This document shows positions 4,076 through 37,259 of a stretch of 64,000 bases of DNA, in pieces. Origin of the DNA: Cyanophora paradoxa CCMP329. Taxonomy: Eukaryota; Plantae; Glaucophyta. The DNA is taken from contig QPMI01000689.1 in NCBI GenBank assembly GCA_004431415.1, forward strand, positions 50,723 to 114,722, written 5' to 3'. Within the stretch, counting starts at the first letter, position 1. Every line of letters begins with the position of its first letter. The notes under the pieces are model-generated. The model did no database searches and was not told where the DNA came from. It saw nothing but the letters and a program-made list of their open reading frames with translations. Both the position numbers and the translations under genes were made by a program.

Positions 4076-4148
4076 ACACATATGAATATTCATATTTTAA
4101 TCCCTCGGCGTTCCGCCTCAGGATTAAAATATGAATATTCATATGTGT
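4076..4148. repeat. Terminal hairpin of element 1, left end (28-bp perfect stem, 17-nt loop region)
   Basis: ACACATATGAATATTCATATTTTAATCC-ctcGGCGttcCGCCtca-GGATTAAAATATGAATATTCATATGTGT. Confidence 0.95.
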
Positions 4149-4892
4149 GATTCGATGTTATATCAATAAAATCGATTAATTTATTTGAATTTTCACATGA
4201 ATTTTCATATTTTTATATGCATTTTTCAAGTAATTTAATCGATATTATATCGATAAACTCGATTAATCGATATTGTATCTTAATTAGAGTTAATCGGAAT
4301 TATATCAATAACTTCGATTGATCTTAATTGAATCCTAAATGAATCTAATCGGAATTATATCAATAAATTCGATTAAATCATGTTCTTTTCCGATTAAATC
4401 AATTAAATATTTAACTTTGTTACCATAAGTGGTCTAAGTTGACTCACTTTTCATTAACATTTTGAACTCTTAGTCTCCTTGAATTTCTTAAGATGACTCA
4501 ACTTAGTCAACTTAGTCAACTTTGTTACCATAATCAATCAGGGTGGACTCACTTTTAGATCAACTTTGAAATTTCAAGCAAAATCAACTTTGATTTCAAA
4601 AGTGGATCTTCTAAGTGGACTCAAAATGTTCACTTTGTGATACATGTTAGCTCAAATCCTTACTGTTTATGGTCAGGGTTGACTAAGTGGGGGGAGTTGA
4701 CACATTTTTTGAAATCCTTTTTAGAAAACTTTAGGTCCCAAATATTTCCTGTGAAATTTGAGTCAACTCAACCCACTTAGTCAACCCTTGCATTGAATTC
4801 GTAACAAAATCCATATACTATTACTACTTTTACGATTAATATGAGTCAACCTTGAGTCCACTTTAATATAAATATTATATAATAGGGGGAAT
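4076..4892 (+). repeat. Left terminal inverted repeat (~817 bp)
   Basis: Reverse complement of 30843-31426 plus 36689-36921; near-identical (two substitutions noticed near 4810-4820). Confidence 0.92.
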
Positions 4893-5368
4893 CTAGGGGA
4901 GATGCTTACTAAATGCAATGTTAGATTGATGTTTTCATATATGTGATCACGTTAATCGAAGCTATATAATACAGTGGATTATTAGATATCATAAGTGGAT
5001 CGAATTGATAAGTATATGGTTAAAAATCGCGATTTGTGAGTTATAATTGAATTTAATCGAATTATTTTGAATTTCAAAACTCGCTTTAATCGTAATAGCG
5101 ATGTATACACATCGAGATTCGTATATGTGATTGCAAGTTATTGTTATGTATGATATATGTGATTATATTCGATCGTCAGTGCATCGATTTGATAACTTCC
5201 TGGTGATCTATATTAAAAACCCACGTTTTTCAAGCGCATCGATTTGATAACGTGGTGCTGAGATATCGCAGCAAACGTGAATATTGATTTTCCAGACGGG
5301 TACAGCATTAATCTAGAAAAAAACGCGTTTTTTTTTTACTTTTCAAGTTTCACGGCGAACGAAGTAAA

Positions 5369-5441
5369 GGTTCTCGAGCGGATTTGAACCGCGTAGTTCC
5401 GAGTCAGAAATCAAGCGCTCTATTCTCTGAGCCAAAAACGC
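5369..5441 (-). ncRNA. Degenerate tRNA-like sequence / possible Pol III unit
   Basis: TGGCTCAG..AGAGC (A-box/D-arm) and GCGGTTCAAATCCGC (B-box/T-arm) at tRNA spacing. Acceptor and anticodon stems are poor. Confidence 0.3.
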
Positions 5442-5667
5442 TTTTCAGCCAAGTCGATTCTTAGGCTAGTGTTTCACCAAGTCTACTATGGCAAGTGACT
5501 TTCGCATCTTCAAACTGCTATATCTCATCACCAGATCATCAAAACGCAACGTTCTGCATAGCGCTGTGAAGCGCTTGATAAGATCTACAAGACTATGTGT
5601 ATATCATATGCATATATGTATATCTGTCATACATATATTTGGAAAAAACGAGTTTTTGCCTAGCAAA

Positions 5668-7053
5668 CTAGCTAGTTTTGGTCCTTTCTCTTAGTGTTCT
5701 CTGAGGTTTAGGGGCTGTATATGACTCCTTAGTAGTCTGAAAGTCATTATACCATCTTTGGCTATTCACTTCTGAAAGCTTCTGTGTTCCTGCTATAGTG
5801 AGCTTTTTGAGTTCCCTGTTAACTTTCCCAGCCTTCTCCTTTCTAGCCTCTATCAAAGGCTTATCTGGGACTTCATTAGCAGCTTCTATGCCCTCTCTCC
5901 TTATAGCAGCATCAACCCTAGCTTCCTCTTTAGCTTGCTCTAAGGCATCTACTGTAGGGGTTTCCAGATACTCAACTGCATTCACAGGCAACAGCTCATG
6001 GAAAGCAAACCTGTTATCTATGATCTCTCCAGTGGGACTCTTTAGCTTAAACTTGAAGCCTTCTCTACTATCAACAGTGTAAACCATCCTAGACCAATTG
6101 TTACCCTGTTTTGCAAAGGGGTTCTTCTCTACTTTCACTCTAACAAACATGCCAGGCTGCATGGTATCAAGATAAGCTATTGATTTCTTGAATCTTTCAT
6201 CTTCTAATCCCACTATATACCTATAATGCTCCTCTGTAGTTTCGCCTGGCTTCATCTTAGTAGCTGAGTGAACTGTATTATTGTAATTATACTCAATATC
6301 ACCTAACACATCAAAGAATCTAGCTGTATTATTAGCTATGCAGTAGTTTGTGATCAATCTCTTAATCTGCTTGTTAAAGGCTTCAATTCGACCTTGGCTT
6401 CTGTGGTCTGCAGTTCCACTCACTTGGTGTTCTATGTATTTACTAGATAGATACTCCTGGAATATTCGATTTTGGAACTCACTTCCAGCATCTGATTGAA
6501 CCTTTACTATGGGTCTTGCTACTCTCATCTCAAGCTGTTTAAATGCAGCTAATGTAGTGAGAGCTGATTTATCCCTAATAGGTATGATATACCCAGTTCT
6601 CAGTGTGGATTCCATTGCAGTCATAAAGGTATCATAGCCATTGTTTTGTTTCTTATAAGCTGGGAAAAAGAGCAAATCAATCACATAGGTATCAAGGGGT
6701 TGCCTTATTGGGACCATGGGATCTCTCTTTCTAGATATAGCAGGTGCATTGATCTGAACTACCTCTTGCTTTTTATAGAACTCTTGCAACTGCTTATAGG
6801 ATTCATCTGGTAACTCAGCCCTCATAGCTTGAAGCCCTTTGTAACCAGTTCTCACATCATAGAATCTCTTGGCAATCTTACTGGTTTCTTTCACTGCAAT
6901 AGCAACTGGGATCTCTACTGGGACAAGCTCTTTCATCTCAGACTTTTTGACAATTCGAGATTCCCCTTTTTCCTCCTTTGGAACTGTGATAGGCAGTAGG
7001 TTACCTTGTAGTTGCTCAGTGGTTCTCCTAACTATTCTTCCAGTTGCTGGCAT
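5668..7053 (-). CDS. Retroviral-like (rve, DDE) integrase of Polinton type
   Basis: YVIDLLF / VQSDAGSEF / QGRIEAFNKQIK catalytic D-D-E pattern, followed by YNNTVHSATKMKP and an SH3-like C-terminal segment. Confidence 0.92.
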   Translation of the reverse strand: MPATGRIVRRTTEQLQGNLLPITVPKEEKGESRIVKKSEMKELVPVEIPVAIAVKETSKIAKRFYDVRTGYKGLQAMRAELPDESYKQLQEFYKKQEVVQINAPAISRKRDPMVPIRQPLDTYVIDLLFFPAYKKQNNGYDTFMTAMESTLRTGYIIPIRDKSALTTLAAFKQLEMRVARPIVKVQSDAGSEFQNRIFQEYLSSKYIEHQVSGTADHRSQGRIEAFNKQIKRLITNYCIANNTARFFDVLGDIEYNYNNTVHSATKMKPGETTEEHYRYIVGLEDERFKKSIAYLDTMQPGMFVRVKVEKNPFAKQGNNWSRMVYTVDSREGFKFKLKSPTGEIIDNRFAFHELLPVNAVEYLETPTVDALEQAKEEARVDAAIRREGIEAANEVPDKPLIEARKEKAGKVNRELKKLTIAGTQKLSEVNSQRWYNDFQTTKESYTAPKPQRTLRERTKTS

Positions 7054-7056
7054 CTC

Positions 7057-10000
7057 TTAATTAAAAGGAACAGAATTAATACCATCTGGTAAGATGTATC
7101 TCTTTGCATCAAAGCAGTTTAGGGCAACCCTTCTACTCACAGTATCTATTATTGTGTGATCTGCCCTTCTCTTCTGCTTTGCAGTCACAGTCTTGCTGAT
7201 ACCTGCAAATAAACACTCCTTAAAATCATTGAATTGGAGTTCCTCAGTGGAAGTCCCAGAGAGCTTACTCCTCTCAATCTCAGCAGTTCTGAAACTGTAA
7301 ACTTTAGCTCTCAGACCCACATACTCCAATATAGCAGAACCTGGCATCTCATTTTTGTATTTACCTGGGGTCATTCTGTTAGATCCCCCTAGGTCCAAGG
7401 CATAAGATATATTCTCTATATCTTTTTGTAAGGTCTTAGATTCAATATATAGACAGAAGGAGTCAGTATCATGGAATAGTAACTTGGCTTTGGACCATTG
7501 GGACCTCACAGTATCATAGAAGAACTTGTAGTTATGCAGTTTGGCAGCATCCAAAACATAAGCCCCAATTGCAACTGGCTTATCTAGCTTCACATGTTTT
7601 GTGTAAAACTCAAAGGCAACTGCCCTTTCACTTATGGGACTTGTTGATTTCACTAAAGGAGAGGCTGCATATTTCATAAATAGCTTCTCAGTGTTGGCAA
7701 TCTTAACCACAGATCGACCTCTACATGATTCAATGCATTTCCCATAGATTGAATTATTCATGAGCTTATAGAAATCAGCCTCGAATTTATTCACTGCTTT
7801 CCTTCTCATATCAGTGTTCAGCTCAATATAAGATTTCATTACAGGAGCCACAGTAAATGATAGGACCCTGTGGACTTTACTCAATTTCACCCCTTTGTCC
7901 AACAGATACTGTAGAAGAGGCTCAGAAATCACATAGTTGGTCACAGAACCAAAGGTTGCAGTTAGCTTAGGGGTCTTATCAAGCTCTTCTCCCGAAAGAT
8001 CTAATAGGCTCTTTTGATATTGTGATAATTCTGCATATTCTACTATTTTCTTGTTAATAATTAGGGGAAAATCACTGTGATCTAGAAACAGCCTAATTGG
8101 GTAATCCAGATCAACTTCTAGGAAACTGGATCTGTTATCTTGTGGGTTGAATTCGGTCTCCCATCTAAAATCACCAACTGGGATTGGCTGACTCAAACAG
8201 TAGCCATACAAGTTGTTAGCATCAAACAGCATAATATGGGAGTTCTCACCATCAGCCTCAGCATACCTACAAGGCATTGTTGCAAAGCCACCCCTGATTC
8301 CCCTCTCAACAAATTCGTATTGCTCTACATCACTTATAAGCTCTATTTTTGCCTTGGTGGTCCTTAACATAGCATCCCAAGATAACCCAGGGGCAGATAC
8401 ATAATGAACTGGGTCAAGTCCATATACTGAGTGTGAAAGCCTTCTGAAGGCTTGGAATTTGTTCATTAACTCAGTCACATCAGCAGCTCCGAAATCCATG
8501 AAATTACTGGCATCAATGAACTTGTAAAGACCCCATTGCAATGATAGGTATTGATCAAAATTTTTCGAAAGGATTTCAATTCGCTTTTTATCACCCATGC
8601 CTGCTATTTTTCTGAAAATGAATGTCCCACAGTCATCCATTTGGTCAACAACAACTGCAACTTTGGTTTGCTTTGAGATTCTCCTATGGAGATTGCAGTT
8701 TCTGCATGCAGGAGCAATGTAATGACCTGTGTGATGATCATGATCCCTGCATTTGAAGTTCTCTTTGGTGAACCTCTCACTGCAAAGGTAACAGTGTTTA
8801 GTAGCCCTGTAAACAGCCTTTTGCTCATCTGTGAGTTCATTCATGGGTATATTGGTAAACAGAAAATCGATCAGTTCTCTTGCTTTGGACTCCAAGCATT
8901 CAAAGAGACCTCCCATTGGATCCTGCCCCTCAAATCGAAAATCTTGAACATCTGCCCCAGTGACTATTCTTATGTTGACTGCTGAGACTTCTCTCTTGGA
9001 TTTCGATGCATCTATGGGGATGCTTCTATGTTCAATCTTGCAGTAAACCACAACAGGAAGCCAAACAGTTTTCCTTAGGTTTTTCAGTCCAAACTCTATT
9101 GTGGTCTCAGGTTTAGGTGTGATTCCCTTTGAGAGTCTCCAATCAATGCATCTGTTTGAGTCCACATGAGCAGTGAGTTTAGCCTCAGACCTGAATCGAG
9201 ATAAGCATGTGTCACAGTAGTGTAACTTCTGATCATTGTATGTTTCATGGTTAACTTTCAATAGCCTTGAAAGGGACATGATTGTAATATAGTGACCATT
9301 CCCTTCATCATCAAATATCAGCATGAGATTAACCTTATGCTTTCTGCCTGGGTTACTTGATTGATGCAGGGGATAAACAACCTCTCCATCGATTCCAAAT
9401 ATATTAATGCTAATGCCTGCATTTTGAGCCTCGAATTTATCAATTATTTCAGCATCACAGGCAACAGGGAATGGGATATTGTCGAAATTGAGAGCCAGCG
9501 GATTATAAGCGATTGCTGAGTATTTCCATTTGCGATACTGTGAAAGCTCATTCCTCTTATGGGAGTTTATCGCTTTTCTGTGAATATATGCCAAAATTGC
9601 ATTTTCGAAGCAGGAATCATCAATATTTCGAATATTCACTGTGGCTCTCTTCCTAGCAATCCACTCTGGGGTTTGTAGAAAGCATCCACCAGTTGGAGCA
9701 TAACTCATAATAGCCACTCTGAGTATTTCAATTCTTTCTAAGCGATAGCTATCAACCACATTCATCTGCTCCTGACACATTTGGGCTGCTTTATTCAGCT
9801 CAGTTCGAATATTTCTCGATCTGGTTAATACAAAATAATCACTGTAAATGTATTTCGATATCCAAACCTGCGGATTGCTGACTTTAACGAACTTGCAGAT
9901 AAAAGACAAGCGAACCTTGATTGCCCTGAATTGATCTAAACCCTGCCTTAATCGATTAGGAAGGGATGTAGCAATTCTGTCCAGGAATTCAATCACATCT

Positions 10001-10302
10001 ACAACAACTTCCCTTCTGGCTCTGTAAGTGAGCCAGCGATATAATTCATTCATGGCTGTTCCATCTTCTGCCTCAGGTTCTATTTGCCTTAGGCGATCTA
10101 GTTCATCCAAGGTTTCAATTTTATCATATAGGTTATTTGCTTTTCTGGTTAATCTGGCTAAAGTGGGTCTACCCTTTGCAATTAAATCTATTTCCCGGTC
10201 ATATTCAGCCTCTGTTATTTCATGGGCTGCATAAAGTGTTCCCAGCAATCCCATGAGTTCCCATTTCTTCTCTCTTATGAGTTTGTTGGTAATTCGGGGC
10301 AT
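7057..10302 (-). CDS. Family B DNA polymerase (Polinton protein-primed type) with endonuclease-VII-like Zn insertion
   Basis: Motifs FDANNLYG, KLMNNSIYGK, HDTDS, GLRAKVY. CYLC..CRDHDHHTG..ACRNCN insertion. GLDPVHYVSAPGLSWDAML segment typical of Maverick PolB. Confidence 0.92.
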   Translation of the reverse strand: MPRITNKLIREKKWELMGLLGTLYAAHEITEAEYDREIDLIAKGRPTLARLTRKANNLYDKIETLDELDRLRQIEPEAEDGTAMNELYRWLTYRARREVVVDVIEFLDRIATSLPNRLRQGLDQFRAIKVRLSFICKFVKVSNPQVWISKYIYSDYFVLTRSRNIRTELNKAAQMCQEQMNVVDSYRLERIEILRVAIMSYAPTGGCFLQTPEWIARKRATVNIRNIDDSCFENAILAYIHRKAINSHKRNELSQYRKWKYSAIAYNPLALNFDNIPFPVACDAEIIDKFEAQNAGISINIFGIDGEVVYPLHQSSNPGRKHKVNLMLIFDDEGNGHYITIMSLSRLLKVNHETYNDQKLHYCDTCLSRFRSEAKLTAHVDSNRCIDWRLSKGITPKPETTIEFGLKNLRKTVWLPVVVYCKIEHRSIPIDASKSKREVSAVNIRIVTGADVQDFRFEGQDPMGGLFECLESKARELIDFLFTNIPMNELTDEQKAVYRATKHCYLCSERFTKENFKCRDHDHHTGHYIAPACRNCNLHRRISKQTKVAVVVDQMDDCGTFIFRKIAGMGDKKRIEILSKNFDQYLSLQWGLYKFIDASNFMDFGAADVTELMNKFQAFRRLSHSVYGLDPVHYVSAPGLSWDAMLRTTKAKIELISDVEQYEFVERGIRGGFATMPCRYAEADGENSHIMLFDANNLYGYCLSQPIPVGDFRWETEFNPQDNRSSFLEVDLDYPIRLFLDHSDFPLIINKKIVEYAELSQYQKSLLDLSGEELDKTPKLTATFGSVTNYVISEPLLQYLLDKGVKLSKVHRVLSFTVAPVMKSYIELNTDMRRKAVNKFEADFYKLMNNSIYGKCIESCRGRSVVKIANTEKLFMKYAASPLVKSTSPISERAVAFEFYTKHVKLDKPVAIGAYVLDAAKLHNYKFFYDTVRSQWSKAKLLFHDTDSFCLYIESKTLQKDIENISYALDLGGSNRMTPGKYKNEMPGSAILEYVGLRAKVYSFRTAEIERSKLSGTSTEELQFNDFKECLFAGISKTVTAKQKRRADHTIIDTVSRRVALNCFDAKRYILPDGINSVPFN

Positions 10303-10363
10303 TATTCCTAACTTGTTCCTATTCTAAGGGGATATTTTATTTTAGGATGTTCTAAACGCATTT

Positions 10364-10714
10364 TTAAAATGTTTTAATGGATCCATTGGCTTCCTCTGAA
10401 TGGAATCGCAAAAACCGATTAATTCTAAATCTTGATTTCGGTTTTTGTAAATTGACTATCCAAGGTTCAAACAGATACATGTAATATGCTTCTCTGTTCA
10501 TTAGGTCTTCATGCCCACCATTCTTGCTTGAATACAAGACTGAAAACTTGACATCAGCAGCCTTGCATAGGTCTGCTGTGGATTTCATTTCACCTGATTT
10601 GTGTTGTCTCCATCTTTTGTGTAGTGGCTGTGAGGTTCTCCCTATGTAGATTTTGTTCATTTCCTGACTCTCAATCATATAGATCGATCCAGAATCATGA
10701 TCTGTTCCAGCCAT
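10364..10714 (-). CDS. GIY-YIG endonuclease
   Basis: SIYMI..KIYIGRT..KRWRQH..REAYY. Confidence 0.85.
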   Translation of the reverse strand: MAGTDHDSGSIYMIESQEMNKIYIGRTSQPLHKRWRQHKSGEMKSTADLCKAADVKFSVLYSSKNGGHEDLMNREAYYMYLFEPWIVNLQKPKSRFRINRFLRFHSEEANGSIKTF

Positions 10715-10841
10715 GTCTTACTTCTAACATAAAAATATATTTTTCTATCTCTTAAATCATTTTTTGGAAATGGCTTAAAGCGAATTTGAAAAAAGGATAT
10801 AGAGGAAAAATTATTTTCTTTTCTACTAGTAGAAAGGATCG

Positions 10842-11327
10842 ATGAATACCCAAGATATCATAGAAACCCTGAAAGCTTCGACCTCAATACCTGTTGAGGA
10901 TGCCACAAGTATGTTTACTGATGCAACTAGAGATCTTTTGGATCGCTCTGTGAGTGAAAACAAAATCTTTGTGATCTCAAACACTGAAAAGCATGTCAAA
11001 ATGTTTCGGAATTTGAATGTGGTCAATGGATATTCTCCTGAGAGAAGGCAACTTTGCTTCATTCTCTTCAAAGACAGTGGTTACCTAGTTCCCCAATCGA
11101 TTTCTAAGAGTATTCTGAAATCGTTCTTACATGATGTCATCATATCTTTTGAGAGGGAAGAGGATACAACATGTGTTATTTGTTTGGAAACTGATGAACC
11201 CCCTGGGACATGGAGTTGTTTCAAGTGTAATAGTCAAGTATGTGGTGACTGCACAGCAAAGCTGCCATCAAAAGATCAATTCAAATGTCCAGTATGTAGA
11301 AGTGATCTTAGTGTTAAGTTGACTTAG
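10842..11327 (+). CDS. RING-finger protein (putative E3 ligase)
   Basis: CVICL..CFKC..VCGDC..CPVCR C-terminal RING-like pattern. Confidence 0.8.
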   Translation: MNTQDIIETLKASTSIPVEDATSMFTDATRDLLDRSVSENKIFVISNTEKHVKMFRNLNVVNGYSPERRQLCFILFKDSGYLVPQSISKSILKSFLHDVIISFEREEDTTCVICLETDEPPGTWSCFKCNSQVCGDCTAKLPSKDQFKCPVCRSDLSVKLT

Positions 11328-11500
11328 TGGGTGGAGTTGAGGCACTTTTTATTTCTTTTTAGGGCAGAGTCCTCTTTCAGAATCTGTGAAAAAATGAGTC
11401 AACTCCCCCCACTTAGTCAACCTAATCGATAAATAAACCATAAATAAAAGACTGTTTGGGTCTTTTATGATAAATTTGAGTCAACTATGAGTCCACTTTT
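11313..11500. promoter_or_regulatory. Internal copy of the TIR iteron block (putative replication origin) directly downstream of the helicase
   Basis: GTTGACTTAGTGGGTGGAGTTGA..TGAGTCAACTCCCCCCACTTAGTCAACC..TGAGTCAACTATGAGTCCACTTT resembles 4676-4865. Confidence 0.55.
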
Positions 11501-11508: not shown

Positions 11509-14103
11509 CTAAACTTCAACATCAGAATCATAATCTGATGCATCTGGATCAGCAGCAGGTAGGTCCTGTTTCATTCTTGGATTAGCTTCTTCCTCAATAG
11601 TGTCATCATCTACAAGTTTCATCTTTCTGAATTCCTCAAATACTTGTGGGAATAGGAAATGATAGTATTGTTTGCCATTTGTAGTTTTCACTTGAATATA
11701 TGTAACACTTCTCATTTCAGTATAATATCTGCGACTATTATAATCGTTTTTATATTTGTTGCTGGTAATGAACTCCTGGAACCACTTCCAGGTTTCCACA
11801 AGGCTACCAGACTTGCATTTATTCTCGGAAATTAAGCCTCGATCCACAAGCCACTTAGTGAACATAAGAATGATTGGGGCGCATACCTGCTGGGCTAAAT
11901 AGTATTTATTTGTAAGGGGTCTATCAGCAATCCAGTTCACATCCTCACAGTCAACTTTGGTTCTCAAATAGTGGGCAATGTTTCGAATATTGCAGTGATC
12001 ATTAAGCCATTTTACAAGTGGAAGGAAGTATGACCTATCCTTTGCGAATTTCTTACTAACTTCAACAACCACAAATCGCCTATCTCCAGCTTCAATTTTC
12101 ACTGGAATGTTATTATTGCTGGTAAATATAATCCTGGCAAAGTTGCTTTTTGTGTATGAATCTATCCCTTTGTGTTCAATTACAATCTTATCAGAAGTTA
12201 TGAGATCTTTGAGCATATCATTATTTTCGAATGTGTCCTTGCCTGAGGCTTCATTGACAACAATCAAGATCTTATCCTCTCTGTTGTGGGCAAATCGACC
12301 AAACAGATCCTCTTTTGGCTTACCAGTTGCATAACTCAGGGCATCTCCAAGTATCTTCTTTTGAAAAGTATCAACCAACACATTCTTACCAGTTCCTTGT
12401 TCACCAATGAAGATTATGGATACTCCATTGAGTTCCCCAGGCTTTTGCAGCATGTGGGCAAACCATTTCAATAGATATTCGTAGGTATTTTGATCCTCAC
12501 CAGACATTAAGAACAAGTGATCTAGGAAAGGCTTAATCATCTCAGCAGTTACATCCTCTGGAGCATTTTCGAATTGCTGATGGTCAACCTTCATTCCTGG
12601 ATAGAGATTAAATACAGACTTGCATTTGGCACTGAGAGTAGCAGGAGGTGGGAGGAAATCCATGTAAGTTGATCTTGTGGCTGTTGGATCCACAATCCAT
12701 TTCCTAAATGATTGCTCCCATTTCTCTTTCTCATTATCTGTCCCCTCATTCACAATCACCTTATGCATCAAGTGGGGGAAATGCTTTGTAGAGAGCTTCC
12801 CAATATCTTTTGGCATCCAGCAAAGTAGTTGTTCATCCCAGAGCATCACACAACCAACATTTTCAACATGATGCATTCGAGCATTGAAATACCTCTTATG
12901 CACATTGTAATGTTCAGCCAAAGGAGGGATACTTGCAGTCTTGTAATCGATTTCATCTGTGTCCTCTGGTAGGAATGCATACTTTTTGGGGAAGAGTTCC
13001 TTGAAAAGCTCATTGTTATCTTTGCTCAACCAATAAACCAAGGATTTGAAGGTTAACACTTTGCCAGGCTCAACCTTCTTCTTGCTTCTGCGAAGCTGTG
13101 TAAACTTCTCCTGGCATTCATCATAATCATACTTGTCACTCTGTTCTGAGAATTGGTGGAAGAGTTCAGCTTGCATTTTAGGGGTGAACTTGTTGTCTTC
13201 CCCAACATTGATGATGACCAGTCCTACATCAATCCAAGTTTTATACTCATTAGCTCTCTCACCATTCAGACCCATTATAACACTTTGTAGCAGCTCGAAA
13301 GTAACAGGATTTTCGGGTTCAGTGTCTTTTTCAGCTTCTACCTTCTCAGTCTTCACTTTATCACTTTTTGGCTCCTTTTTAACTGGTTTTGGCTCAGGGC
13401 TATAATTTGCGAATGCAGAAATATTCGATTCATCCACAAGTTTAGTAGTAGCTGAGAAGTAAGATACAAAGAAGTCCTCATTTCGCATTAACACTTTGTC
13501 ACAGTCAACGAATTTCTTAAAGCAAACGTTTTTATCAACATCTTTTTTCGATTTATTTTGAGCATCCAGAGTCTCACCTTTGCAGCAATTGAGGCAGATA
13601 AGGTTCTGTGTGGAGCTGTACACTCCACTGTCATAATCCTCATTTTTCACCAATCCCATTGCTTTGAAAAGCTTGGGGATATCTTCATGTTTGCATGCAA
13701 GCGATTTAATGATAAAGTGGGCTGAGATCTTGAACTTGGTGACATCCTCCTTGATCAAATAAACCCTTCTATGGCGAACTGCAACAGCAATATCGTTAAT
13801 CGAAGTGGTCCCAGATCGCTTCCATAGCTTATCTCTCATCTCTCTTACAACAGCTTCCGCCTCAGCATAGTTATCAGCAATGTTCTCCTTCAAATCAGCG
13901 AATTTATCCAGGTCCAGGTAAACTCTGGTGACTTGTTCAGGCTGAATGCATTCAGCCCAGGTCTTAATCTTGCTATTATCAATGGCTTCAAGGGCATCTT
14001 CGGCAGAATCAAATACATGGGTGACCTTGTTGCGATCACCAATGAGAGTACTAAGGAATGTAGCGTTTTCAACAGGGGTGGCGAATTTCTCGATTTTGTT
14101 CAT
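11509..14103 (-). CDS. AEP (PrimPol-like) primase - PriCT-2 - SF3/D5-like helicase
   Basis: AEP motifs YLDLD, SAHF, DSGVY. PriCT-2-like YKTWIDVG..FSEQSDKYD. Walker A GEQGTGKN, Walker B VVNEA, motif C FTSNN, GDRRF. Confidence 0.88.
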   Translation of the reverse strand: MNKIEKFATPVENATFLSTLIGDRNKVTHVFDSAEDALEAIDNSKIKTWAECIQPEQVTRVYLDLDKFADLKENIADNYAEAEAVVREMRDKLWKRSGTTSINDIAVAVRHRRVYLIKEDVTKFKISAHFIIKSLACKHEDIPKLFKAMGLVKNEDYDSGVYSSTQNLICLNCCKGETLDAQNKSKKDVDKNVCFKKFVDCDKVLMRNEDFFVSYFSATTKLVDESNISAFANYSPEPKPVKKEPKSDKVKTEKVEAEKDTEPENPVTFELLQSVIMGLNGERANEYKTWIDVGLVIINVGEDNKFTPKMQAELFHQFSEQSDKYDYDECQEKFTQLRRSKKKVEPGKVLTFKSLVYWLSKDNNELFKELFPKKYAFLPEDTDEIDYKTASIPPLAEHYNVHKRYFNARMHHVENVGCVMLWDEQLLCWMPKDIGKLSTKHFPHLMHKVIVNEGTDNEKEKWEQSFRKWIVDPTATRSTYMDFLPPPATLSAKCKSVFNLYPGMKVDHQQFENAPEDVTAEMIKPFLDHLFLMSGEDQNTYEYLLKWFAHMLQKPGELNGVSIIFIGEQGTGKNVLVDTFQKKILGDALSYATGKPKEDLFGRFAHNREDKILIVVNEASGKDTFENNDMLKDLITSDKIVIEHKGIDSYTKSNFARIIFTSNNNIPVKIEAGDRRFVVVEVSKKFAKDRSYFLPLVKWLNDHCNIRNIAHYLRTKVDCEDVNWIADRPLTNKYYLAQQVCAPIILMFTKWLVDRGLISENKCKSGSLVETWKWFQEFITSNKYKNDYNSRRYYTEMRSVTYIQVKTTNGKQYYHFLFPQVFEEFRKMKLVDDDTIEEEANPRMKQDLPAADPDASDYDSDVEV

Positions 14104-22302: not shown

Positions 22303-25300
22303 ATGAGCTTCAATTACCCACCCAATCTAGAAACCATTCAAGATGATAATGCAAGCAGCACCAAGCATGTGAACTTTGATAATATTAAAGTAAAGGGTTC
22401 AGTTTCGATTGACCACAGCTCTGATAATACTTCCAAGACTCAATCAAGGGAGCATGCTTTATCTGTGAATCAAACCGATCCAGATAAGGAGGAAGTCAGT
22501 GTTGCTTTTAGCTTGGGTAATGTGAAAGCAAACCAAGTGGCAGAGATCAAAGCAACAAGAAGGAGACCTAGGAAACTAAAAACCAGTGGCACTCACCCAG
22601 ATATACCTTCTAGGTTTGATAGTGGTCGATTGATTTTCAATGTTCAAGATGAGCAGGGCAAACAGAACACAGCTTTGCGAATTTACAATGAGGGCAGCAC
22701 TGCAAAAGCTGAGGTCCCCCAAGTATTGCAAGTGGGTCCCATTGCCAATACAAATCAGGTCTCCTACACAAATGATGTCTACCCCAAGGATATTACATAT
22801 GACTTTGCGAGGAATGAGCCTTTTGGGTTCTTTACTCCAAAAGATGTCCATCAAAAAAAGCCATCAATTACAATCAACAGTAGCCCCAGTCAGCCAGTAG
22901 CAATCCATTTACACCCTGATTTAGTCGAAATGGATAGGCACCTTTTGCCTTTGTATAGCAATGTGAAAGACCTTGGAATAAGAACCAGGCAATGGCGAAA
23001 TATCCATGGCAGTAATGTGTATGCAAATGGTGAGAAGCTTGTAAGTGAGAAGACCATAAGAGAGATCTTTGAGTATTATGGACCTGTCCCAGTTCCCTTC
23101 CCTCTTCCATGGGATCCACCAGATTTAACACCAAAAAAGCAACCAGGCAGAGAGTACACAGCAGATGAGACAGTTCCTTTTGGGCAACACATTGTTAGTT
23201 GGGAGCAAGTTCGCAATAAACCTATAATTGAACCCAGAAAGCAAATAGATGAGCAGTATTTACCTCCTGAAGTCGACATATTAGAGCTTGATGAATACCA
23301 ATTCGTCCCAGATGAGGAAGAGTATTTACCTGATGGTTTTGACCCACAAGAATATGAATATGATCAATTTGACCCCAATGAGGAGGAGATACTACCAGAT
23401 GGCTTAGATCCACAAGAGTTTGAGTATGAGCAGAACTATGAGCCTGATGAGGAGTATTTACCAGATGGTCATGATCCACCAGCTGTTGACTATGAGCAAC
23501 CTTATGAACCTCATGAAGAATTATTACCAGATGGATTTCGACCTGAGATCTGGGAGTTCTTTCCTGATTATGAACAAATTAATAATAAACCTGCAAAGTA
23601 TCCCCCAGAGGATCACAACCATGATTGGGATGAAATCTTAGGCAAACCTCAAAAGTATCCACCAGAGGATCACAGGCATGATTGGGGAGAAATTGATGGG
23701 ATTCCAGATAAGTTTGCAGCAAGCAACCATGAACACACTTGGGATGAGATCAATGACCAACCAGAATTTGCAAAGGTAGAGCCTCTTGATAACTTGGGGG
23801 TTTCTCTTTACCAGACTTGCAATGTCCCTGAAAGAATCTTTTTGAATGAACACTATGTACATGTGAATGGGACACTTGCAAATTCAGCTATGAGAGGACC
23901 ACTTCATATTAGGACATTACCAGGCTCTTATGATCCACCACCTGAACCAGGAGCAACCATACCAAATATCTTTGTGTCAAGCTACATGGAGGCTGACATT
24001 CCCACAGATACATTCAGAGTCCCAACAGACCCAGCAACCTACCAAAATTTCAACTCTGCTATACAGGTTCATGTAGCAGATGTAAGCAGCTTAGATGGCT
24101 CAAGACCAATGATAGTATTCAGCAGAGATAAATATTCTTATATTCCCATAGTGGGAACTGCAAATGATAATTATGGGAGGGCAGAGCTTGCATGGATTAA
24201 AACAGATTATGGTGGGGTTCTGGAAGCCAATCAGAGGATGGCTGCAAAAAACATTCACAATGAGAACATTTCGAGAGTGGTCACAGAGGATTATCTAGAA
24301 GATCAAGGATATATTGATGAAGGTGAACTCACAAATACTCTCTCTCTTTTTGTGATCAAAAATGACACAAACCTTACAGTCACAAGTAACATTTACACCA
24401 GCAACCTTTATACAAGTAACATTTTCACAAGTAACCTATGGGCAAGTAATATTTATGGAAGTAATTTAGAAGTCGACTATTTGACTGTGAATATTGAAGC
24501 AAACCTACCAAATCATCCTACTTCCAATGTTGTTTTGGATTGGATTGATAACCACACACACACAAAAGATGAGATCACAGATTTTGCACATGATCATTTA
24601 TGGGAGCATATCACAAATCCCCCATTGACCTTTCCACCCAGTTCCCATACTCATTTATGGGAGCATATTACTAATCCCCCCTCAACCTTCCCGCCCAGTT
24701 CACACACTCATGACTACTCAGAGATCACAAACTCTAATCACAGACACATTTGGAGTGAAATAGATGAACAGCCAGTATTCGCACAATTGAATGCAATCGG
24801 AAACGTTTTTAATGGAGTCACACTTTACCAATCGATTAATACACCTGAAAGGCTATTTTTGAATGATCATTATGTTAGTCTCAATGGGACTTTTACAGGT
24901 CAAACAGGCACTCCAATGGAGGGAACTCTTGCAGTAAGATTACCCAGGGATCCAATTGTAAATGGAGTTTATGATGGTGATTTCAATGTAGGAGTAAATG
25001 ATACTTTCCCCAGTATCTATGTTACGAATTATCACCCAGGTGAAACAGGACAAGTAGCCGATTTTTCAGCAGCTATTCAAATAAACGTTACAGATCAAAG
25101 CCCATATGATGGAGCAAGACCTAAGATTGTGTTCACAAGGGAGAAAGTCGTAAACTACCTTCCTGTTGTGGGACAACCCACAGATGATCATGGGAAATGT
25201 GAGATGGCATGGATTAAAACGACATCAGGAGGAGCCTTAGAAGTCAATCAGAGGATGGCAGCAAAAAACTTACACAATACAACCCTTTCAGGTGTGGTCA

Positions 25301-30165: not shown

Positions 30166-30194
30166 GTTTAATTAATTTTTCTAAGGTATTCTTA

Positions 30195-30593
30195 ATGGAG
30201 ACTCAATACAGAGGCTTTCATGTTATGCTTGATTACAAAGCTAAATCAGCTATTGCAACAGGACATGAGCATGTGAGCTTCCTAGGTAATTGGATTATGA
30301 AAACCCTTGAACAAGCTATATTGCGACAAGGTATTAGGATTGTTCATAAACACTGTGAAATATTTGATGGCAAAGTATCACCTCCTGGTTTTGCATTGGT
30401 TCTGCTATTAGATGAAAGCCATTGTACAGCTCATTGTTATTCCAATGAAGGCATGTTAGCAATTGATATATTCAGTTGTGGTAAAGAAGCTCAGCATAAA
30501 ACACAAGCAGTTGCAGATGAGATCGATAAAACAATGAATTTCCTCACATTTGAGAAGACTGAAAGACATAAACATGATAGATTCCCGTTTTAA
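30195..30593 (+). CDS. speD: S-adenosylmethionine decarboxylase proenzyme (short prokaryotic/viral type)
   Basis: G.HVMLD, PPGF..VLLLDESHCTAHCY (E|S autocleavage site), AIDIFSCG. Confidence 0.85.
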   Translation: METQYRGFHVMLDYKAKSAIATGHEHVSFLGNWIMKTLEQAILRQGIRIVHKHCEIFDGKVSPPGFALVLLLDESHCTAHCYSNEGMLAIDIFSCGKEAQHKTQAVADEIDKTMNFLTFEKTERHKHDRFPF

Positions 30594-30842
30594 TGAGTTT
30601 CTATAATGACAATCAGGGTGATTTACCTTTTTTATTACAATAGCTACTGTTACAAAAGGATATAATATATCCTTTTCCTACAATAACTTTCTACAATGAT
30701 TACTTTCCGGATTCCGGTCATTCTTTACGATAGAAATTCTACTGTATGATGTAGCCGAAATATGAATGCACCCTACATTAAGCAATGTCAAGTATTTCGA
30801 ATACAATTGATTTCCTTACACTACAACTCAACATTCCCCTTC

Positions 30843-31426
30843 ATTCCCCCTATTATATAATATTTATATTAAAGTGGACTCAAGGTTGACTCATATTAAT
30901 CGTAAAAGTAGTAAAAGTATATGGAATTTGTTACGAATTCAATGCAAGGGTTGACTAAGTGGGTTGAGTTGACTCAAATTTCACAGGAAATATTTGGGAC
31001 CTAAAGTTTTCTAAAAAGGATTTCAAAAAATGTGTCAACTCCCCCCACTTAGTCAACCCTGACCATAAACAGTAAGGATTTGAGCTAACATGTATCACAA
31101 AGTGAACATTTTGAGTCCACTTAGAAGATCCACTTTTGAAATCAAAGTTGATTTTGCTTGAAATTTCAAAGTTGATCTAAAAGTGAGTCCACCCTGATTG
31201 ATTATGGTAACAAAGTTGACTAAGTTGACTAAGTTGAGTCATCTTAAGAAATTCAAGGAGACTAAGAGTTCAAAATGTTAATGAAAAGTGAGTCAACTTA
31301 GACCACTTATGGTAACAAAGTTAAATATTTAATTGATTTAATCGGAAAAGAACATGATTTAATCGAATTTATTGATATAATTCCGATTAGATTCATTTAG
31401 GATTCAATTAAGATCAATCGAAGTTA
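30843..31426 (-). repeat. Right TIR, inner part
   Basis: Reverse complement of 4309-4892. Confidence 0.9.
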
Positions 31427-34400
31427 TCAGGCGAAGCCTCTTTCTCAAACCCAAAAACCGCCGATATAAATTCCTTTTTTAACCTTTTTTTCCACTCAAG
31501 ATCCCCCCTGCTAAATAATTTCCGCGTCGCACTCCCTCGAGGACGAATTATTAATTCTGCCTCGACACGGACGCGATTGCCGCTAATGACTCAGCTACCC
31601 TAACCCCCACAGACCTCTCTAGATCCATTTTTAGCGTCGTGGCTCCCCTAAGACGACCGCTCGCCCGTGGGCGTCGCGCGAAAATCGAATTTCCCTCTGG
31701 ATCAATTCCGGTACTTAACCTCCGACAAATGCAGTCCGAGTCAGAAGGTGGGACCCGGTCCCGCCCGGTCCCGCGACGAAATCGCGCCAGGGACGCCCCA
31801 GAACGATACAGAATGCCGCGCGAGGGCGAGCGCATCGCCGCAAGCTCGATTTTGGGCGCCGTCGACGCTCCAGTGCGAAGAGTCGGCCGAAAATTTGATC
31901 CGGCCGGTTCCGGCCGGTCCCGCGACGCGCGCAATCGATGCGTACTGGCGCGCATGGACATAGCAGGGCCTGCGCACCCCCGAAATCCGCTTTTCGGAGC
32001 CGGAACAGCGCAGGAAGGTACCCGACGGCCAAAATTCGATCCTGCACGCGCCCTGACATCTTTCCGCGCGCCCACGCCGCGGCGCATGCGCGGAACGATA
32101 GCATAAGCATTTAAGATGTAGGCAAAGTCTTCCGCACGCTTTGCGTATGCGACGGGCCGCGAGGACCCAGCCGACCCCGAAAATTCGATCCTGCATGGAC
32201 CTGCACATCTTTCCGCGCGCCCTCGCCTCGAGCTCCGCAGCCCCGCACATCGATGCTATAGCTATATGCATTCAAGATTCTGTTTAAGCGATTCGCAAGC
32301 TCTGTGCATGCGCCTGGCCGCGAGAACCTTGCCCCTCCCGGGCCTCCCTCTCAACAATATTATCAGGCGAAGCCTCTTTCTCAAACCCAAAAACCGACGA
32401 TCTAAATTCCTTTTTTAACCTTTTTTTCCACTCGAGATCCCCCCTGCTAAATAATTTCCGTGTCGCACTCCCTCGAGCCAGAATTATTAATTCTGCCTCG
32501 ACACGGACGCGATTGCCGCTAGTCACACACCCACCCGAACCCCCACAGACCTCTCTAGATCCATTTTTAGCGTCCTGGCTCCCCTAAGACGACCGCTCCC
32601 CCGTGGGCGTCCCGCGAAAATCGAATTTCCCTCTGGATCAATTCCGGTACTTAACCTCCGACAAATGCAGTCCGAGTCAGAAGGTGGGACCCGGTCCCGC
32701 CCGGTCCCGCGACGAAATCGCGCCAGGGACGCCCCAGAGCGATACAGAATGACGCGCGAGGGCGAGCGCATCGCCGCAAGCTCGATTTCGGGCGCCCTCG
32801 ACGCTCCAGTGCGAACAGTCGCCCGAAAATTTGATCCGGCCGGTTCCGGCCGGTCCCGCGAAGCGCACAAACGATGCGTACGAGCGCGCATAGAAATAGC
32901 AGGGCCTGCGCACCCCCGAAATCCGCTTTTCAGAGGCCGAACAGCGCAGGAAGGTACCCGACAGCAAAAATTCGATCCTGCACAGGCCCGGACATCTTTC
33001 CGCGCGCCCGCGCCGCGGCGCACGCGCGGAACGATAGCATAAGCATTTAAGATGTACAAGAAGACTTCCGCACGCTTTATAAATGCACCAGGCCGCGAGG
33101 ACCTAGCCGACCCCGAAAATTCGATCCTCTACAGACCTGCAGACCTTTCCGCGGTCCCGCGACGAAACCGCGCCAGGGACGCCCCAGACCGATACAGAAT
33201 GACGCGCGAGGGCGAGCGCATCGCCGCAAGCTCGATTTCGGGCGCCGTCGACGCTCCAGTGCGAAGAGTCGGCCGAAAATTTGATCCGGCCGGTCCCACC
33301 CGGTCCCGCGACGCGCGCAATCGATGCGCACTGGCGCGCATAGACATAGCAGGGCCTGCGCACCCACGAAATCCGCTTTTCGGATGCCGAACAGCGCACG
33401 AAGGTACCCGACGGCAAAAATTTGATCCTGCACCGGCCTGGACATCTTTCCGCGCACTCATGCCGCGGCGCATGCGCGGAACAATAGCATAAGCATTTGA
33501 GATGTAGAAGAAGCCTTCCGCACGCTTTATAGCTGCGCCGGGCCGCGAGGACCCAGCCCACCCCGAAAATTCGATCCTCTACAGACCTGCAGACCTTTCC
33601 GCGCGCCCTCGCATCCTCGCGCGTGCGCATCGCTACAATAGTAATTTGACATCTTCGTTAAGCTTTTTGCGACCCCCGACAACGCGACAGGGCGCGAGAA
33701 TCCAGCCGACCCTGAAAATTCGATCCTGCATGGACCTGCACGTCTTTCCTCGCGCCCTCGCCTCCGCAACCCTGCACATTGGTACTATATGCATGCGAGA
33801 TTCTTTTTAAGCGATTGGCAAGCTCTGCGCATGCGCCTGGCTGCAAGAACCTCGCCCCTCCGGATCCTCGGGCTCCCACCCCCCCCACGTGCACAAGCCA
33901 ATACATAAAATCTCCTCTCAATATGCTCCACCAGTTAAAAGCAAGCCAGTACGTCCAACTCCTCCCTAATTATAAATTCCCTCTAGCTCCTCGATCATTA
34001 CATTCCTCTCTGGCCAGCCAGGTTCGTCCCCCAGCCCTCTGGCTATATATATAGCTAGCGAGCCAGCATGCATATATATGGCCCGGCCGCCAGCTTCGAA
34101 TTCCAGCCAGCCATTTGGCCGGGCAGCGCGCTGGCCAGTGCGCTAGGCCTAGGCTGCCAAGGCCTACTGTGACAGCCGCGAGAGCGTCCGCGAGGCTTCG
34201 CCGTACTTAGTGCTCCGCAGGAGCACGGATCTTGTCTCAAACCCAAAAACCGACGATCTAAATTCCTTTTTTAACCTTTTTTTCCACTCAAGATCCCCCC
34301 TGCTAAATAATTCCCGTGTCGCACTCCCTCGAGGCAGAATTAATAATTCTGCCTCGACACGGACGCGATTGCTGCTAGTCACACACCCACACGAACCCCC

Positions 34401-36688
34401 ACAGACCTCTCTAGATCCATTTTTAGCGTCGTGGCTGCCCAAAGACGACCGCTCCCCCGTAGGCATCCCGCGAAAATCGAATTTCCCTCTGGATCAATTC
34501 CGGTACTTAACCTCCGACAAATGCAGTCCGAGTCCGAAGGTGGGACCCGGTCCCGCCCGGTCCCGCGACGAAATCGCGCCAGGGACGCCCCAGAACGATA
34601 CAGAATGACGCGCGAGGGCGAGCGCATCGCCGCAAGCTCGATTTTGGGCGCCGTCGACGCTCCAGTGCGAAGAGTCGGCCGAAAATTTGATCCGGCCGGT
34701 TCCGGCCGGTCCCGCGACGCGCGCAATCGATGCGTACTGGCGCGCATAGACATACCAGGGCCCGCGCACCCCCGAAATCCGCTTTTCGAACCCGGAGCAG
34801 CGCAGGAAGGTACCGGACAGCAAAAATCCGATCCTGGACAGACCCGGACATCTTTCCGCGCGCCCACGCCGCGGCGCATGCGCGGAACGATAGCATAACC
34901 ATTTAAGATGTAGAGAAAGACTTCCGCACGGTGTCTAAATGCACCAGGTCACGAGCACCCAGCCGACCCCGAAAATTCGATCCTTGACGACGACCGCTCC
35001 CCCGTAGGCATCCCGCGAAAATCGAATTTCCCTCTGGATCAATTCCGGTACTTAACCTCCGACAAATGCAGTCCGAGTCCGAAGGTGGGACCCGGTCCCG
35101 CCCGGTCCCGCGACGAAATCGCGCCAGGGACGCCCCAGAACGATACAGAATGACGCGCGAGGGCGAGCGCATCGCCGCAAGCTCGATTTTGGGCGCCGTC
35201 GACGCTCCAGTGCGAAGAGTCGGCCGAAAATTTGATCCGGCCGGTTCCGGCCGGTCCCGCGACGCGCGCAATCGATGCGTACTGGCGCGCATAGACATAC
35301 CAGGGCCCGCGCACCCCCGAAATCCGCTTTTCGAACCCGGAGCAGCGCAGGAAGGTACCGGACAGCAAAAATCCGATCCTGGACAGACCCGGACATCTTT
35401 CCGCGCGCCCACGCCGCGGCGCATGCGCGGAACGATAGCATAACCATTTAAGATGTAGAGAAAGACTTCCGCACGGTGTCTAAATGCACCAGGTCACGAG
35501 CACCCAGCCGACCCCGAAAATTCGATCCTTGACAGACCTGAACATCTTTCCGCGCGCCCTCGCATTCTCGCGCATGCGCATCGTCGCAATATTCATTTGA
35601 GATTTTATCAAAGTTTTCCACAAGCTTTGAAGACGCGAAAGAGCACGAGAACCCAGCCGACGGCAAAAATTCGATCCTGCACACGCCTGGACATCTTTCC
35701 GCGCGCCCACGCCACGGCGCATGCGCGGAACAATAGCATAAGCATTTGAGATGTAGATCAAGCGTTCCGCGCGCTTTGCAGATGCGCCGGGCCGCGGGGA
35801 CCCAGCCGACCCCGAAAATTCGATCCTTGAGGGAACTGAACCGCGTTCCGCGCGCCCTCGCGTCCTCATGCATGGGCATCGCTATAATATTCATTTGAGA
35901 GCTTTTCAAAGCGTAATGCAAGCCCCAAGGGCGCGACAGGGCGCGAGAATTCAGCCGACCCCGAAAATTCGATCCTGCATGGACCTGCACGTCTTTCCGC
36001 GCGCCCTCGCCTCCGCAGCCCCGCACATCGATGCTATATGCATTCGAGATTGTGTTTAAGCGATTCGCAAGCTCTGTGCATGCGCCTGGCCGCGAGAACC
36101 TCGCCCCTCCCGGGCCTCCCCCCCAACAATACATTAATATTAAATAAATCTCCTATCAATCTGCTCCACCAGTTAAAAGCAAGAGTTACCGGTTCAACTC
36201 CTCCCCTAGTTCATTATATATTCGCTCTCCTCATTACATTGCTCCCTGGCCAGCGAGCTCTCCCTCGAGCTGGCTATAGCGGGCCAGCCCATTGCCCCAG
36301 TGCCAAGCCGGCGAAACTTTTGAAGCCCGGCCATGCAACTGGGCGGGGCTGCAGCTGCCCGCCTACTGTGACAGCCGCGAGGGCGTCCGCGAGGCTTCGC
36401 CGTACTTAGTGCTCCGCAGGAGCACGGATCTTGTATATAATTCATCTCCTCTAATCTCAACCTGCTCCGGCCTCCCTTTATTTCCTCAGTACATTAATAT
36501 TCCTCTAGTTATATTCCTCTAGCCGGCCAGCGGTAGCTGGACTGGCCGTCAGCCGGCCAGCTTCCAACCAGAAAGCTGTTCGCGATCGGCCAGGCCGCTG
36601 GCCAGTGCCCTATAGGCCTACTGTGACAGCCGCGAGGGCGTCCGCGAGGCTTCGCCGTACTTAGTGCTCCGCAGGAGCACGGATCTTG
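31427..36688 (+). mobile_element. Nested non-autonomous Helitron/Helentron-like elements inserted in the right TIR (outer 31427-32362 + 36434-36688; inner tandem 32363-34234 and 34235-36433)
   Basis: No TSD; TIR rejoins as AAGTTA|TTGATATA. 5'-TC starts. Three identical 3' ends with GTGCTCCgcaGGAGCAC hairpin then GGATCTTG. 11-bp subterminal inverted repeat GGCGAAGCCTC/GAGGCTTCGCC. GC-rich internal repeats. Confidence 0.75.
34444..35533 (+). repeat. 545-bp near-perfect tandem duplication inside the third Helitron-like copy
   Basis: Identical ORF translations offset by 545 nt (e.g. 34507-34902 vs 35052-35447). Confidence 0.85.
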
Positions 36689-36921
36689 TTGATATAATTC
36701 CGATTAACTCTAATTAAGATACAATATCGATTAATCGAGTTTATCGATATAATATCGATTAAATTACTTGAAAAATGCATATAAAAATATGAAAATTCAT
36801 GTGAAAATTCAAATAAATTAATCGATTTTATTGATATAACATCGAATCACACATATGAATATTCATATTTTAATCCTGAGGCGGAACGCCGAGGGATTAA
36901 AATATGAATATTCATATGTGT
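36689..36921 (-). repeat. Right TIR, outer part, including the terminal hairpin 36849-36921
   Basis: Reverse complement of 4076-4308. Confidence 0.93.
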
Positions 36922-37184
36922 CGGTGAAGGACCAGTTTGGTTCCGTCGACGTGTACAAGATCAGCAAGGCCACCAAACTTCAGCGCCTCTTCGACACCCA
37001 CGGCTACCGGATCGGGCGGAGGCCGGAGACGATTCGATTCATGTTCGACGGCGCCCGAATCCAGCCCACCCAGACGCCGGAGGAGGCAGGTCTCGAAGAT
37101 GGTGACGCAATCGAGTGAGTCCTTTGCCTTTTCGTTCACCTTTACCTTCCTCACGCACCTTGCAGCATCATGTTCGAGCAGGTG
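36922..37184 (+). pseudogene. SUMO: SUMO-like gene, central fragment (exon to 37114, 51-nt intron 37115-37165, exon 37166-37184 giving DIMFEQV), cut by element 2
   Basis: IRFMFDG.RI...QTP...GLEDGD.I SUMO signature. The GTGAGT..TTGCAG intron gives ...AIDIMFEQV, where GG is expected next. Confidence 0.85.
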
Positions 37185-37259
37185 ACACATAGGGATACCC
37201 CTGATCCAAGCCCTCCGGCCTTCGGCCTACAGGCTTGGATCAGGGGTATCCCTATGTGT
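37185..37259. repeat. Terminal hairpin of element 2 (28-bp perfect stem, 19-nt loop region)
   Basis: ACACATAGGGATACCCCTGATCCAAGCC-ctccGGCCttcGGCCtaca-GGCTTGGATCAGGGGTATCCCTATGTGT. Confidence 0.95.

Follow-up and report, generated by a model that had tools for sequence, protein, structure and literature searches.

For the copying of Polinton-like virus (PLV) ends, hairpin priming has been proposed as a model in the available text of a preprint on Halocafeteria seosinensis (bioRxiv 10.64898/2026.07.28.741278). The question of how such ends are copied arises anew from a 64,000-nucleotide stretch of the Cyanophora paradoxa CCMP329 genome (contig QPMI01000689.1, positions 50,723 to 114,722; hereafter the window, with positions counted from its first base), in which two elements interrupt one SUMO-like host gene: element 1, an integrated PLV spanning 4076-36921 and flanked by a 6-bp target duplication, CGGTGA, and element 2 (37185-64000), which carries many frameshifted genes and extends past the window end. 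All three element ends in the window are hairpins of the same geometry, capped by an asymmetric loop. Whereas perfect palindromes hide the direction of copying, an asymmetric loop shows it, and the question thereby becomes testable from genome and virion reads. Here we ask whether these hairpins are genuine end signals, which way and on which strand they are built, and what replication mode they, together with the elements' replication genes, might reflect.

Two Elements Share a Terminal Hairpin Geometry

An initial annotation of the window had described palindromes at 4076-4148 and 36849-36921 (element 1, left and right ends) and at 37185-37259 (element 2), and all three are present there, the right hairpin of element 1 being the exact reverse complement of the left. 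As also described, each has a perfect 28-bp stem followed by a bulged internal loop (3x3 in element 1, 4x4 in element 2), a 4-bp GC stem and a TTC triloop, so that loops of 17 nt in element 1 and 19 nt in element 2, each with a 3- or 4-nt bulge, are enclosed by stems of identical length. The folding z-scores lie between -11 and -14, none of 200 shuffles (0/200) folds as well, and about 6e-11 such stems would be expected by chance in the window, which contains no other perfect stem above 14 bp that closes a loop of at most 40 nt. Both boundaries of the palindromes bear the same ACACAT/ATGTGT motif, and the palindrome abuts the target duplication exactly.

The arms of the two elements are identical at 18 of 28 positions overall and at 9 of the middle 19 (shuffle p = 0.0025), and are therefore homologous, which corrects the initial view that the middle ~19 bp are unrelated. 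The companion claim of complete compensatory change is borne out, as each of the 10 differences between the arms is matched on the partner arm (10/10). The element 1 arm further contains the previously noted 16-bp palindrome (arm positions 5-20), the counterpart of which, at the same place in element 2, has a 4-nt loop closed by a stem of 4 bp; in this nested stem, two pairs out of four have changed on both sides relative to element 1, a possible compensated change that we treat as a lead only, two sequences being compared. Elsewhere, the best capsid and ATPase segments of the two elements are 84-93% identical, their helicases 30-60%, and their polymerases and integrases only ~30% (31% over the 99 visible integrase residues), with stem length unchanged. 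Given such distant polymerases and integrases and the same hairpin geometry, the shape of the hairpin has outlasted deep divergence of the replication genes.

We further examined contigs from 5 of 24 listed public runs, which may all derive from the window's own strain; the contigs considered cover 16 of 183 pieces and 12 of 23 loose ends. In each of these runs (5/5) a single contig spans the host spacer together with the two element junctions, so the hairpin ends are no assembly artefact. A third hairpin type, lying outside the window, is found in both of two runs (2/2) as a 45-letter loose end with a probable 28+17 layout; in its last 30 letters the bulge recurs together with a GGGC/GCCC inner stem and TTC, and 13 of the 28 outer-arm bases are displayed. 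Contig depth relative to the host spacer, a rough guide since depth does not equal copy number, suggests ~100 ends of the element 1 type, 23-24 of the element 2 type and 6 of the third; the element 2 hairpin itself is a 76-nt contig at a depth of 1009. No variant letters are listed over either hairpin in the public-run contigs. In run X2, foreign DNA follows directly on the hairpin apex in one contig (window 36886), leaving half a hairpin that could reflect breakage or nicking of the loop, or else a deletion by chance. The hairpins are real and conserved, and they most likely act as an end signal, in keeping with the initial proposal of a conserved structured end: the fold is retained alongside polymerases and integrases of ~30% identity and recurs in the third type.

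Loop Orientation among Integrated Copies

The asymmetric loop marks the direction of each hairpin, and the three window ends face the same way (3/3). In run X14 the 76-nt element 2 contig runs from the tip to one base into the interior, the third type forms an unbroken 114-nt contig from tip to interior, and a 6679-nt single-copy contig joins another host flank to the same side of the loop. The asymmetry comparison covers the element 2 and third types; contigs of the element 1 type are broken inside the stem, and their orientation is taken from the 2 window ends and 2 low-depth contigs. All three hairpin types share one polarity.

We simulated orientation in k=31 graphs, with 2000 runs per case and neither graph cleaning nor errors. 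At 24 simulated ends the observed asymmetry was recovered in 2000/2000 runs under fixed orientation, in 337/2000 at 10% inversion and in 0/2000 at 50% inversion; at 6 ends, an unbroken run of at least 12 interior bases was recovered in 1062/2000 fixed and 26/2000 balanced runs. The exact +1 overhang seen for element 2 never came from the pure fixed model, which gives +2 or more, and appeared in 123/2000 runs with 10% inversion, yet it could also be explained by interior variants or error branches. Integrated ends, the only copies to which the orientation data apply, are thus strongly biased: balanced flip/flop is excluded by simulation, and rare inversions may occur. The initial annotation had envisaged rolling-hairpin replication as one option and suggested looking for flip/flop isomers; a rolling hairpin of the adeno-associated virus (AAV) type with such isomers is not supported, one orientation being dominant among the integrated copies in the public-run contigs.

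Strand Polarity of the Loop

On the 3'-ending strand the apex reads GAA in all three hairpin types. Elements 1 and 2 together have seven internal-loop mismatches, each of which (7/7) reads G·A or G·T on this strand and C·A, T·C or C·T on its 5'-ending counterpart; the 3 internal-loop mismatches of the third type, read by eye, agree with this polarity, although the hairpin types share ancestry and the counts are accordingly not independent. With its flanking bases the apex is GCGAAGC in the third type and CCGAAGG in element 2. According to the available text of PMC13037366, GNA triloops with a sheared G·A pair are unusually stable and exonuclease-resistant when carried on GC/GC or CC/GG stems, and GCGAAGC is itself an exonuclease-resistant mini-hairpin. 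From the GAA apex and the purine polarity we infer that the working hairpin is the 3' one.

Replication Genes of Element 1

Element 1 encodes a pPolB (7057-10302, minus strand) with a terminal protein (TP)-like domain, a vOTU domain, an EndoVII-like insert and intact polymerase motifs, in which the exonuclease motifs have been lost. We compared it with the best 120 of 2334 homologue matches. The ExoI and ExoII aspartates, present in 120/120 of these, are missing, and the ExoIII stretch is reduced to 34 residues against a median of 128; by eye, the broken polymerase gene of element 2 shows the same exonuclease losses. The priming column, a predicted linking residue in the available text of bioRxiv 10.1101/2024.03.18.585575, is Ser, Thr or Tyr in 116/120 homologues and Asp in element 1, and the Gly or Pro found nearby in 118/120 has no counterpart. 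Element 2 reads the same DSY at this motif, such that in both elements a Ser follows one residue later; protein priming is therefore in doubt, yet may persist.

The vOTU Cys231 and His337 are kept, and a pPolB model (pLDDT 89, from 79 sequences) finds its best match in phi29 polymerase. Residues 78-200 of the model adopt a TP-like fold, a beta-sheet with two helices, which fits the published description by secondary structure only. The EndoVII motif, the insert of which was initially put forward as a candidate resolvase, occurs in 114/120 homologous polymerases, several of them from animal genomes, and is therefore no marker of hairpin ends.

A separate 864-aa protein (11509-14103, minus strand) is a predicted AEP primase-PriCT-2-superfamily 3 helicase (S3H) of the C962R/D5-like kind, with the PriCT-2 and S3H domains assigned by Pfam and an AEP-like N-terminus by an Atlas lead (0.97); PDB and PHROGs searches with the N-terminus returned nothing useful. 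Exonuclease loss with helicase gain has been described for mavirus and PLVs in the portions of bioRxiv 10.1101/2024.03.18.585575 available to us. With the priming motif and exonuclease of the polymerase altered and a predicted primase-helicase present, the self-priming suggested by the initial annotation is plausible.

Models for End Replication

Our preferred reading, held tentatively and at somewhat less than even chances, is that the 3' hairpin self-primes or closes the viral DNA end, followed by asymmetric resolution. Each step of this chain is inferred. The hairpins form the exact tips of the integrated viruses; in this reading the 3'-ending strand would fold back, and the replication cycle would rely on the predicted primase-helicase and the proofreading-less polymerase instead of protein priming. 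Once folded, the strand would have its terminal 3'-OH base-paired at the inner boundary and facing the genome interior as a template, and the outer arm would be re-copied from the inner one, such that stems stay perfect while their sequence drifts. A protein might then read the asymmetric loop and cut 28 bp away, at the ACACAT/ATGTGT boundary, thus releasing or using one orientation; candidate cutters are the integrase, the GIY-YIG protein and the EndoVII insert. Finally, the integrase would join the 3'-OH to host DNA, and gap repair would rebuild the full palindrome and the 6-bp duplication. The recessed 3'-OH, the stems without mismatches, the polarity and the decay of the polymerase all agree with this chain. 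Further support comes from the geometry kept across elements with distant polymerases and integrases and in the third type, from the compensated stem differences, and from the Halocafeteria preprint, whose available text ties palindromic ends to non-pPolB replication genes. A more ambitious version, in which the lineage is shifting from protein to hairpin priming, its polymerase deprived of proofreading and of its priming residue and a primase-helicase acting instead, and a 28-bp ruler cuts GAA-capped 3' hairpins in one orientation to pass the folded 3'-OH directly to the integrase, we consider unlikely but not remote.

Several observations weigh against self-priming. The CG/CG closing stem of element 1 falls outside the unusually stable class for a GAAA loop in the available text of PMC13037366, and the computed folding energies of the two strands differ by only ~1 kcal/mol. 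Ordinary hairpin transfer yields both loop orientations, as set out in the part of PMC11575299 consulted, and with balanced inversion reproducing the data in 0/2000 runs an extra asymmetric step is needed; moreover, no strand-switch joints are listed in the contigs of the 5 runs. The polymerase retains the TP-like fold and the vOTU Cys and His, its Ser lies one residue past the usual priming position in both elements, and the DSY common to the two could mean that it still primes. Mavirus, too, combines exonuclease loss and helicase gain with a polymerase that keeps TP and vOTU (bioRxiv 10.1101/2024.03.18.585575, in part), and no relative outside the source organism showed its ends in the searches described below.

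The strongest competitor, although on balance unlikely, is protein priming on a local panhandle. Here the genome would be an open linear duplex with terminal protein at its 5' ends; the 3' hairpin of a displaced strand would recreate a 28-bp duplex origin without the far end and shield the 3' end, TP would prime at the hairpin, and the loop would be copied without inversion. Such a scheme accounts for the fixed orientation with no extra step and equally for the 3'-strand polarity, and it makes use of the TP-like fold (residues 78-200) and the vOTU Cys/His that the polymerase has kept. The ACAC repeat at the ends is suited to slide-back initiation, which also speaks for protein priming. A panhandle model for displaced strands is available (PMC11886824, in part), and mavirus offers a precedent for an exonuclease-less pPolB paired with an S3H in the preprint text cited above. 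What tells against it is the Asp at the priming column and the missing Gly/Pro, both at odds with nearly all homologues (116/120 and 118/120); furthermore, the recessed, paired 3'-OH would be a ready DNA primer in competition with TP, and elements whose replication genes are of non-pPolB kinds can have palindromic ends as well, as reported in the available text of bioRxiv 10.64898/2026.07.28.741278.

Less probable is that the hairpin serves as an integration or excision signal only, with the integrase nicking a cruciform or folded end and the primase priming elsewhere. The exact abutment of palindrome and duplication and the ACACAT/ATGTGT motif at both palindrome boundaries would be expected of such a signal, the X2 contig with foreign DNA at the apex could be one of its products, and palindromes are associated with particular integrases in the Halocafeteria preprint as far as its available text goes. 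A cruciform, however, would use both strands and thus give no reason for a purine polarity on one of them; the stem has the same length in elements whose integrases are 31% identical over 99 residues, and the terms hairpin and palindrom- are absent from the EMALE and cryptophyte PLV papers that feature rve integrases.

Lower still do we place a balanced rolling-hairpin or poxvirus-like flip/flop in which one isomer integrates or founders were amplified without inversion. It draws on the restriction of our evidence to integrated copies and on the +1 overhang, obtained in 123/2000 runs at 10% inversion and never in the pure fixed model. Against it stand the failure of 50% inversion to give the asymmetry at 24 ends (0/2000), the unbroken 114-nt third-type contig (matched in 26/2000 at 6 ends), the single polarity common to all three types and the lack of an HUH or tyrosine-recombinase match in 25/25 element 1 open reading frames (ORFs) of at least 90 aa. 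Lastly, there is very little left to recommend a neutral origin, in which fold-back repair at a broken end made the hairpin and a founder fixed it, or an origin in faulty assembly: accidental annealing is raised as an alternative in the available text of bioRxiv 10.64898/2026.07.28.741278 and the frameshifts throughout element 2 may point to assembly errors, but stem length, bulge position, 4-bp stem and triloop are the same in diverged types, and the junctions bridged in 5/5 runs, with hairpin contigs at ~6 to 100x host-spacer depth, largely refute such origins.

Anatomy of the Elements and the Interrupted Host Gene

Element 1 is bounded by forward-strand copies of CGGTGA at 4070-4075 and 36922-36927. 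Its left terminal inverted repeat (4076-4900, plus strand, 825 bp) pairs at ≥99% with 30835-31427 (minus strand), which repeat comparison identifies as the inner part of the right repeat, and with 36686-36921. A 5.26-kb insert (31429-36685), GC-rich (59%) and internally repeated with spacings of 149, 450, 545 and 936 bases, divides the right repeat in two; the insert is not part of the hairpin system, and an Rfam search of the window, insert included, gave no match. An AGTCAAC/GTTGACT motif family occupies 4488-4797 and 30947-31327, within the inverted repeats, and recurs once internally at 11315-11433, between the RING and primase-helicase genes.

The assignment of element 1 to the PLVs rests on an A32-type packaging ATPase (16475-17257, minus strand; E 1.3e-12), the 825-bp inverted repeats and the 6-bp duplication with an rve integrase. 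This retroviral-type integrase (5668-7053, minus strand) matches the rve Pfam family below the curated cut-off, though its D126, D188 and E224 are invariant in 4/4 aligned proteins; an integrase from an ENA assembly (P0122), on a 2340-base contig, is 76% identical to it. The probable capsid protein (17317-18687, minus strand) is suggested by an Atlas lead (0.98) to clusters with 12-30% Capsid_N members, at a recognition value below the tool's threshold; it has no Pfam match, its single-sequence fold (pLDDT 35) is unusable, and of its two detectable relatives the closer is a EukProt entry (P0001, 59% identical). A GIY-YIG nuclease lies at 10364-10714 (minus strand; E 2.6e-11); like the EndoVII motif, it is not specific to a dedicated nickase or resolvase. 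Among 25/25 ORFs of at least 90 aa there is no match to a maturation (Ulp1-type) protease, of which a very divergent form could escape, nor to the HUH, tyrosine-recombinase, protelomerase and Holliday-junction resolvase Pfam families. Element 1 has three further genes (20703-22259, 22303-27819 and 30195-30593): one for a patatin phospholipase that includes a discoidin domain, one for a long fibre-like protein bearing an S74 chaperone domain, and one for S-adenosylmethionine decarboxylase.

In element 2 the polymerase and the start of the integrase reach base 64000. Over 47000-64000 it shows many frameshifts, from either decay or read errors, while the genes of element 1 are open. Between its capsid and replication modules lie two arrays of 31-bp repeats with internal dyads (55692-55899 and 56120-56426), each followed by a shared AT-rich block, possibly an internal origin or promoter region.

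Both elements sit in the same SUMO-like gene of their GC-rich eukaryotic host, the start codon of which is at 4024 and the middle part of which lies at 36928-37184 on the plus strand (Rad60-SLD, E 1.1e-11); the visible pieces are thus 4024-4075 and 36928-37184, and in the empty site the two insertions would be 257 bases apart. Element 2 follows ...IMFEQV, probably at the position of the C-terminal di-glycine. In runs X2 and X3 a single-copy contig carries both ~27 SUMO-like spacer bases and 24 bases of an element 2-type stem (window 37087 to 37185). It may come from a paralogous SUMO-like gene that has received a separate insertion, in which case targeting would be hinted at. A further contig, from run X14, continues past the element 1 stem with CGGTGA (window 36927) before diverging, a second such site that may reflect either chance or target preference, the listed flanks being biased by the reference. 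A repeated palindromic motif (340-392, 597-649 and 3890-3942) is found upstream of small GC-rich host-side ORFs, the SUMO-like gene included, and this flank may itself be a mobile or viral region.

We also searched for relatives elsewhere. Capsid and primase-helicase queries against viral_contigs returned no locus, and the full hairpin pattern, scanned for outside metagenome_contigs, gave 0 matches; half the pattern matched 66 times, in no case beside a matching arm (at best 48%). Integrase alignment recovered 13 distant loci of 21-35% identity, six of which were scanned a second time, and no perfect stem above 16 bp was present; none of the 13 is known to include an element end, and they consequently provide no evidence either way.

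Comparison with Known Systems

Element 1 resembles canonical Polintons and Mavericks in its pPolB, rve integrase, A32 ATPase, long inverted repeats and 6-bp duplication, and departs from them in having no maturation protease match, hairpin tips, a predicted exonuclease-dead polymerase and ACACAT...ATGTGT termini. Canonical Polinton/Maverick termini are simple AG...CT. With mavirus it shares a TP-vOTU-polymerase with lost exonuclease, a separate S3H helicase and an rve integrase, as far as the available text of bioRxiv 10.1101/2024.03.18.585575 describes these; unlike in mavirus, part of its exonuclease domain persists in inactivated form, Asp stands in the priming Ser column, its closest polymerases include animal Maverick-type proteins and its capsid has two detectable relatives.

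The closest precedent for the ends themselves is Halocafeteria seosinensis, in which virophage subtypes 1, 2, 5 and 6 and PLV subtype 4 carry terminal palindromes that adjoin target duplications, are linked to non-pPolB replication genes and are proposed to prime from hairpins (bioRxiv 10.64898/2026.07.28.741278, in the text available). Palindromic ends on PLVs are not new, as they are already described there with the same priming model. The two systems agree in a palindrome within an inverted repeat beside a target duplication and in the rve integrase. Subtype 5 has a 52-nt palindrome, and the available text of the preprint does not describe bulges, loop polarity, orientation or covariation; furthermore, in contrast to its non-pPolB replication genes, element 1 carries a decaying pPolB, with polymerase motifs intact, beside the predicted AEP-S3H. 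Cyanophora PLVs are mentioned in PMC12220804 (consulted in part); neither hairpin nor palindrom- occurs in the main texts of PMC8547959, PMC12220804 and 10.1101/2025.10.09.676808, and PMC11296320 mentions hairpins for poxviruses only. A search of mainly open-access literature listed no report on the strand polarity of PLV ends or on the way their loops face. Hairpin priming from terminal palindromes is already in print, and what is new here is the orientation bias, the 3'-strand polarity and the decayed polymerase beside a predicted primase-helicase.

Among hairpin-ended viruses, the left-end hairpin of the protoparvovirus minute virus of mice (MVM) is kept in one orientation by asymmetric processing, with NS1 as the nickase, and by analogy may serve as a precedent for the asymmetric step that self-priming requires. 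Its asymmetry lies in the stem, whereas the stems of elements 1 and 2 are perfect and their asymmetry sits 28 bp from the tip. Like the AAV inverted terminal repeat, the hairpins combine a potentially priming 3' fold-back with an asymmetric internal part that marks orientation; AAV has independent flip/flop ends, the Rep nickase and a single-stranded DNA genome, in contrast to the one dominant orientation and absent HUH match of element 1 (PMC11575299, in part). For integrated copies, balanced inversion of the AAV kind is excluded by these first orientation data. Should protein priming have been lost from the polymerase as well, the elements would show a linear virus swapping one end-replication solution for another, and a shift from protein to hairpin priming, if true, would constitute a third way of handling hairpin ends, unlike the flip/flop of AAV or poxviruses and in a double-stranded DNA integrating virus.

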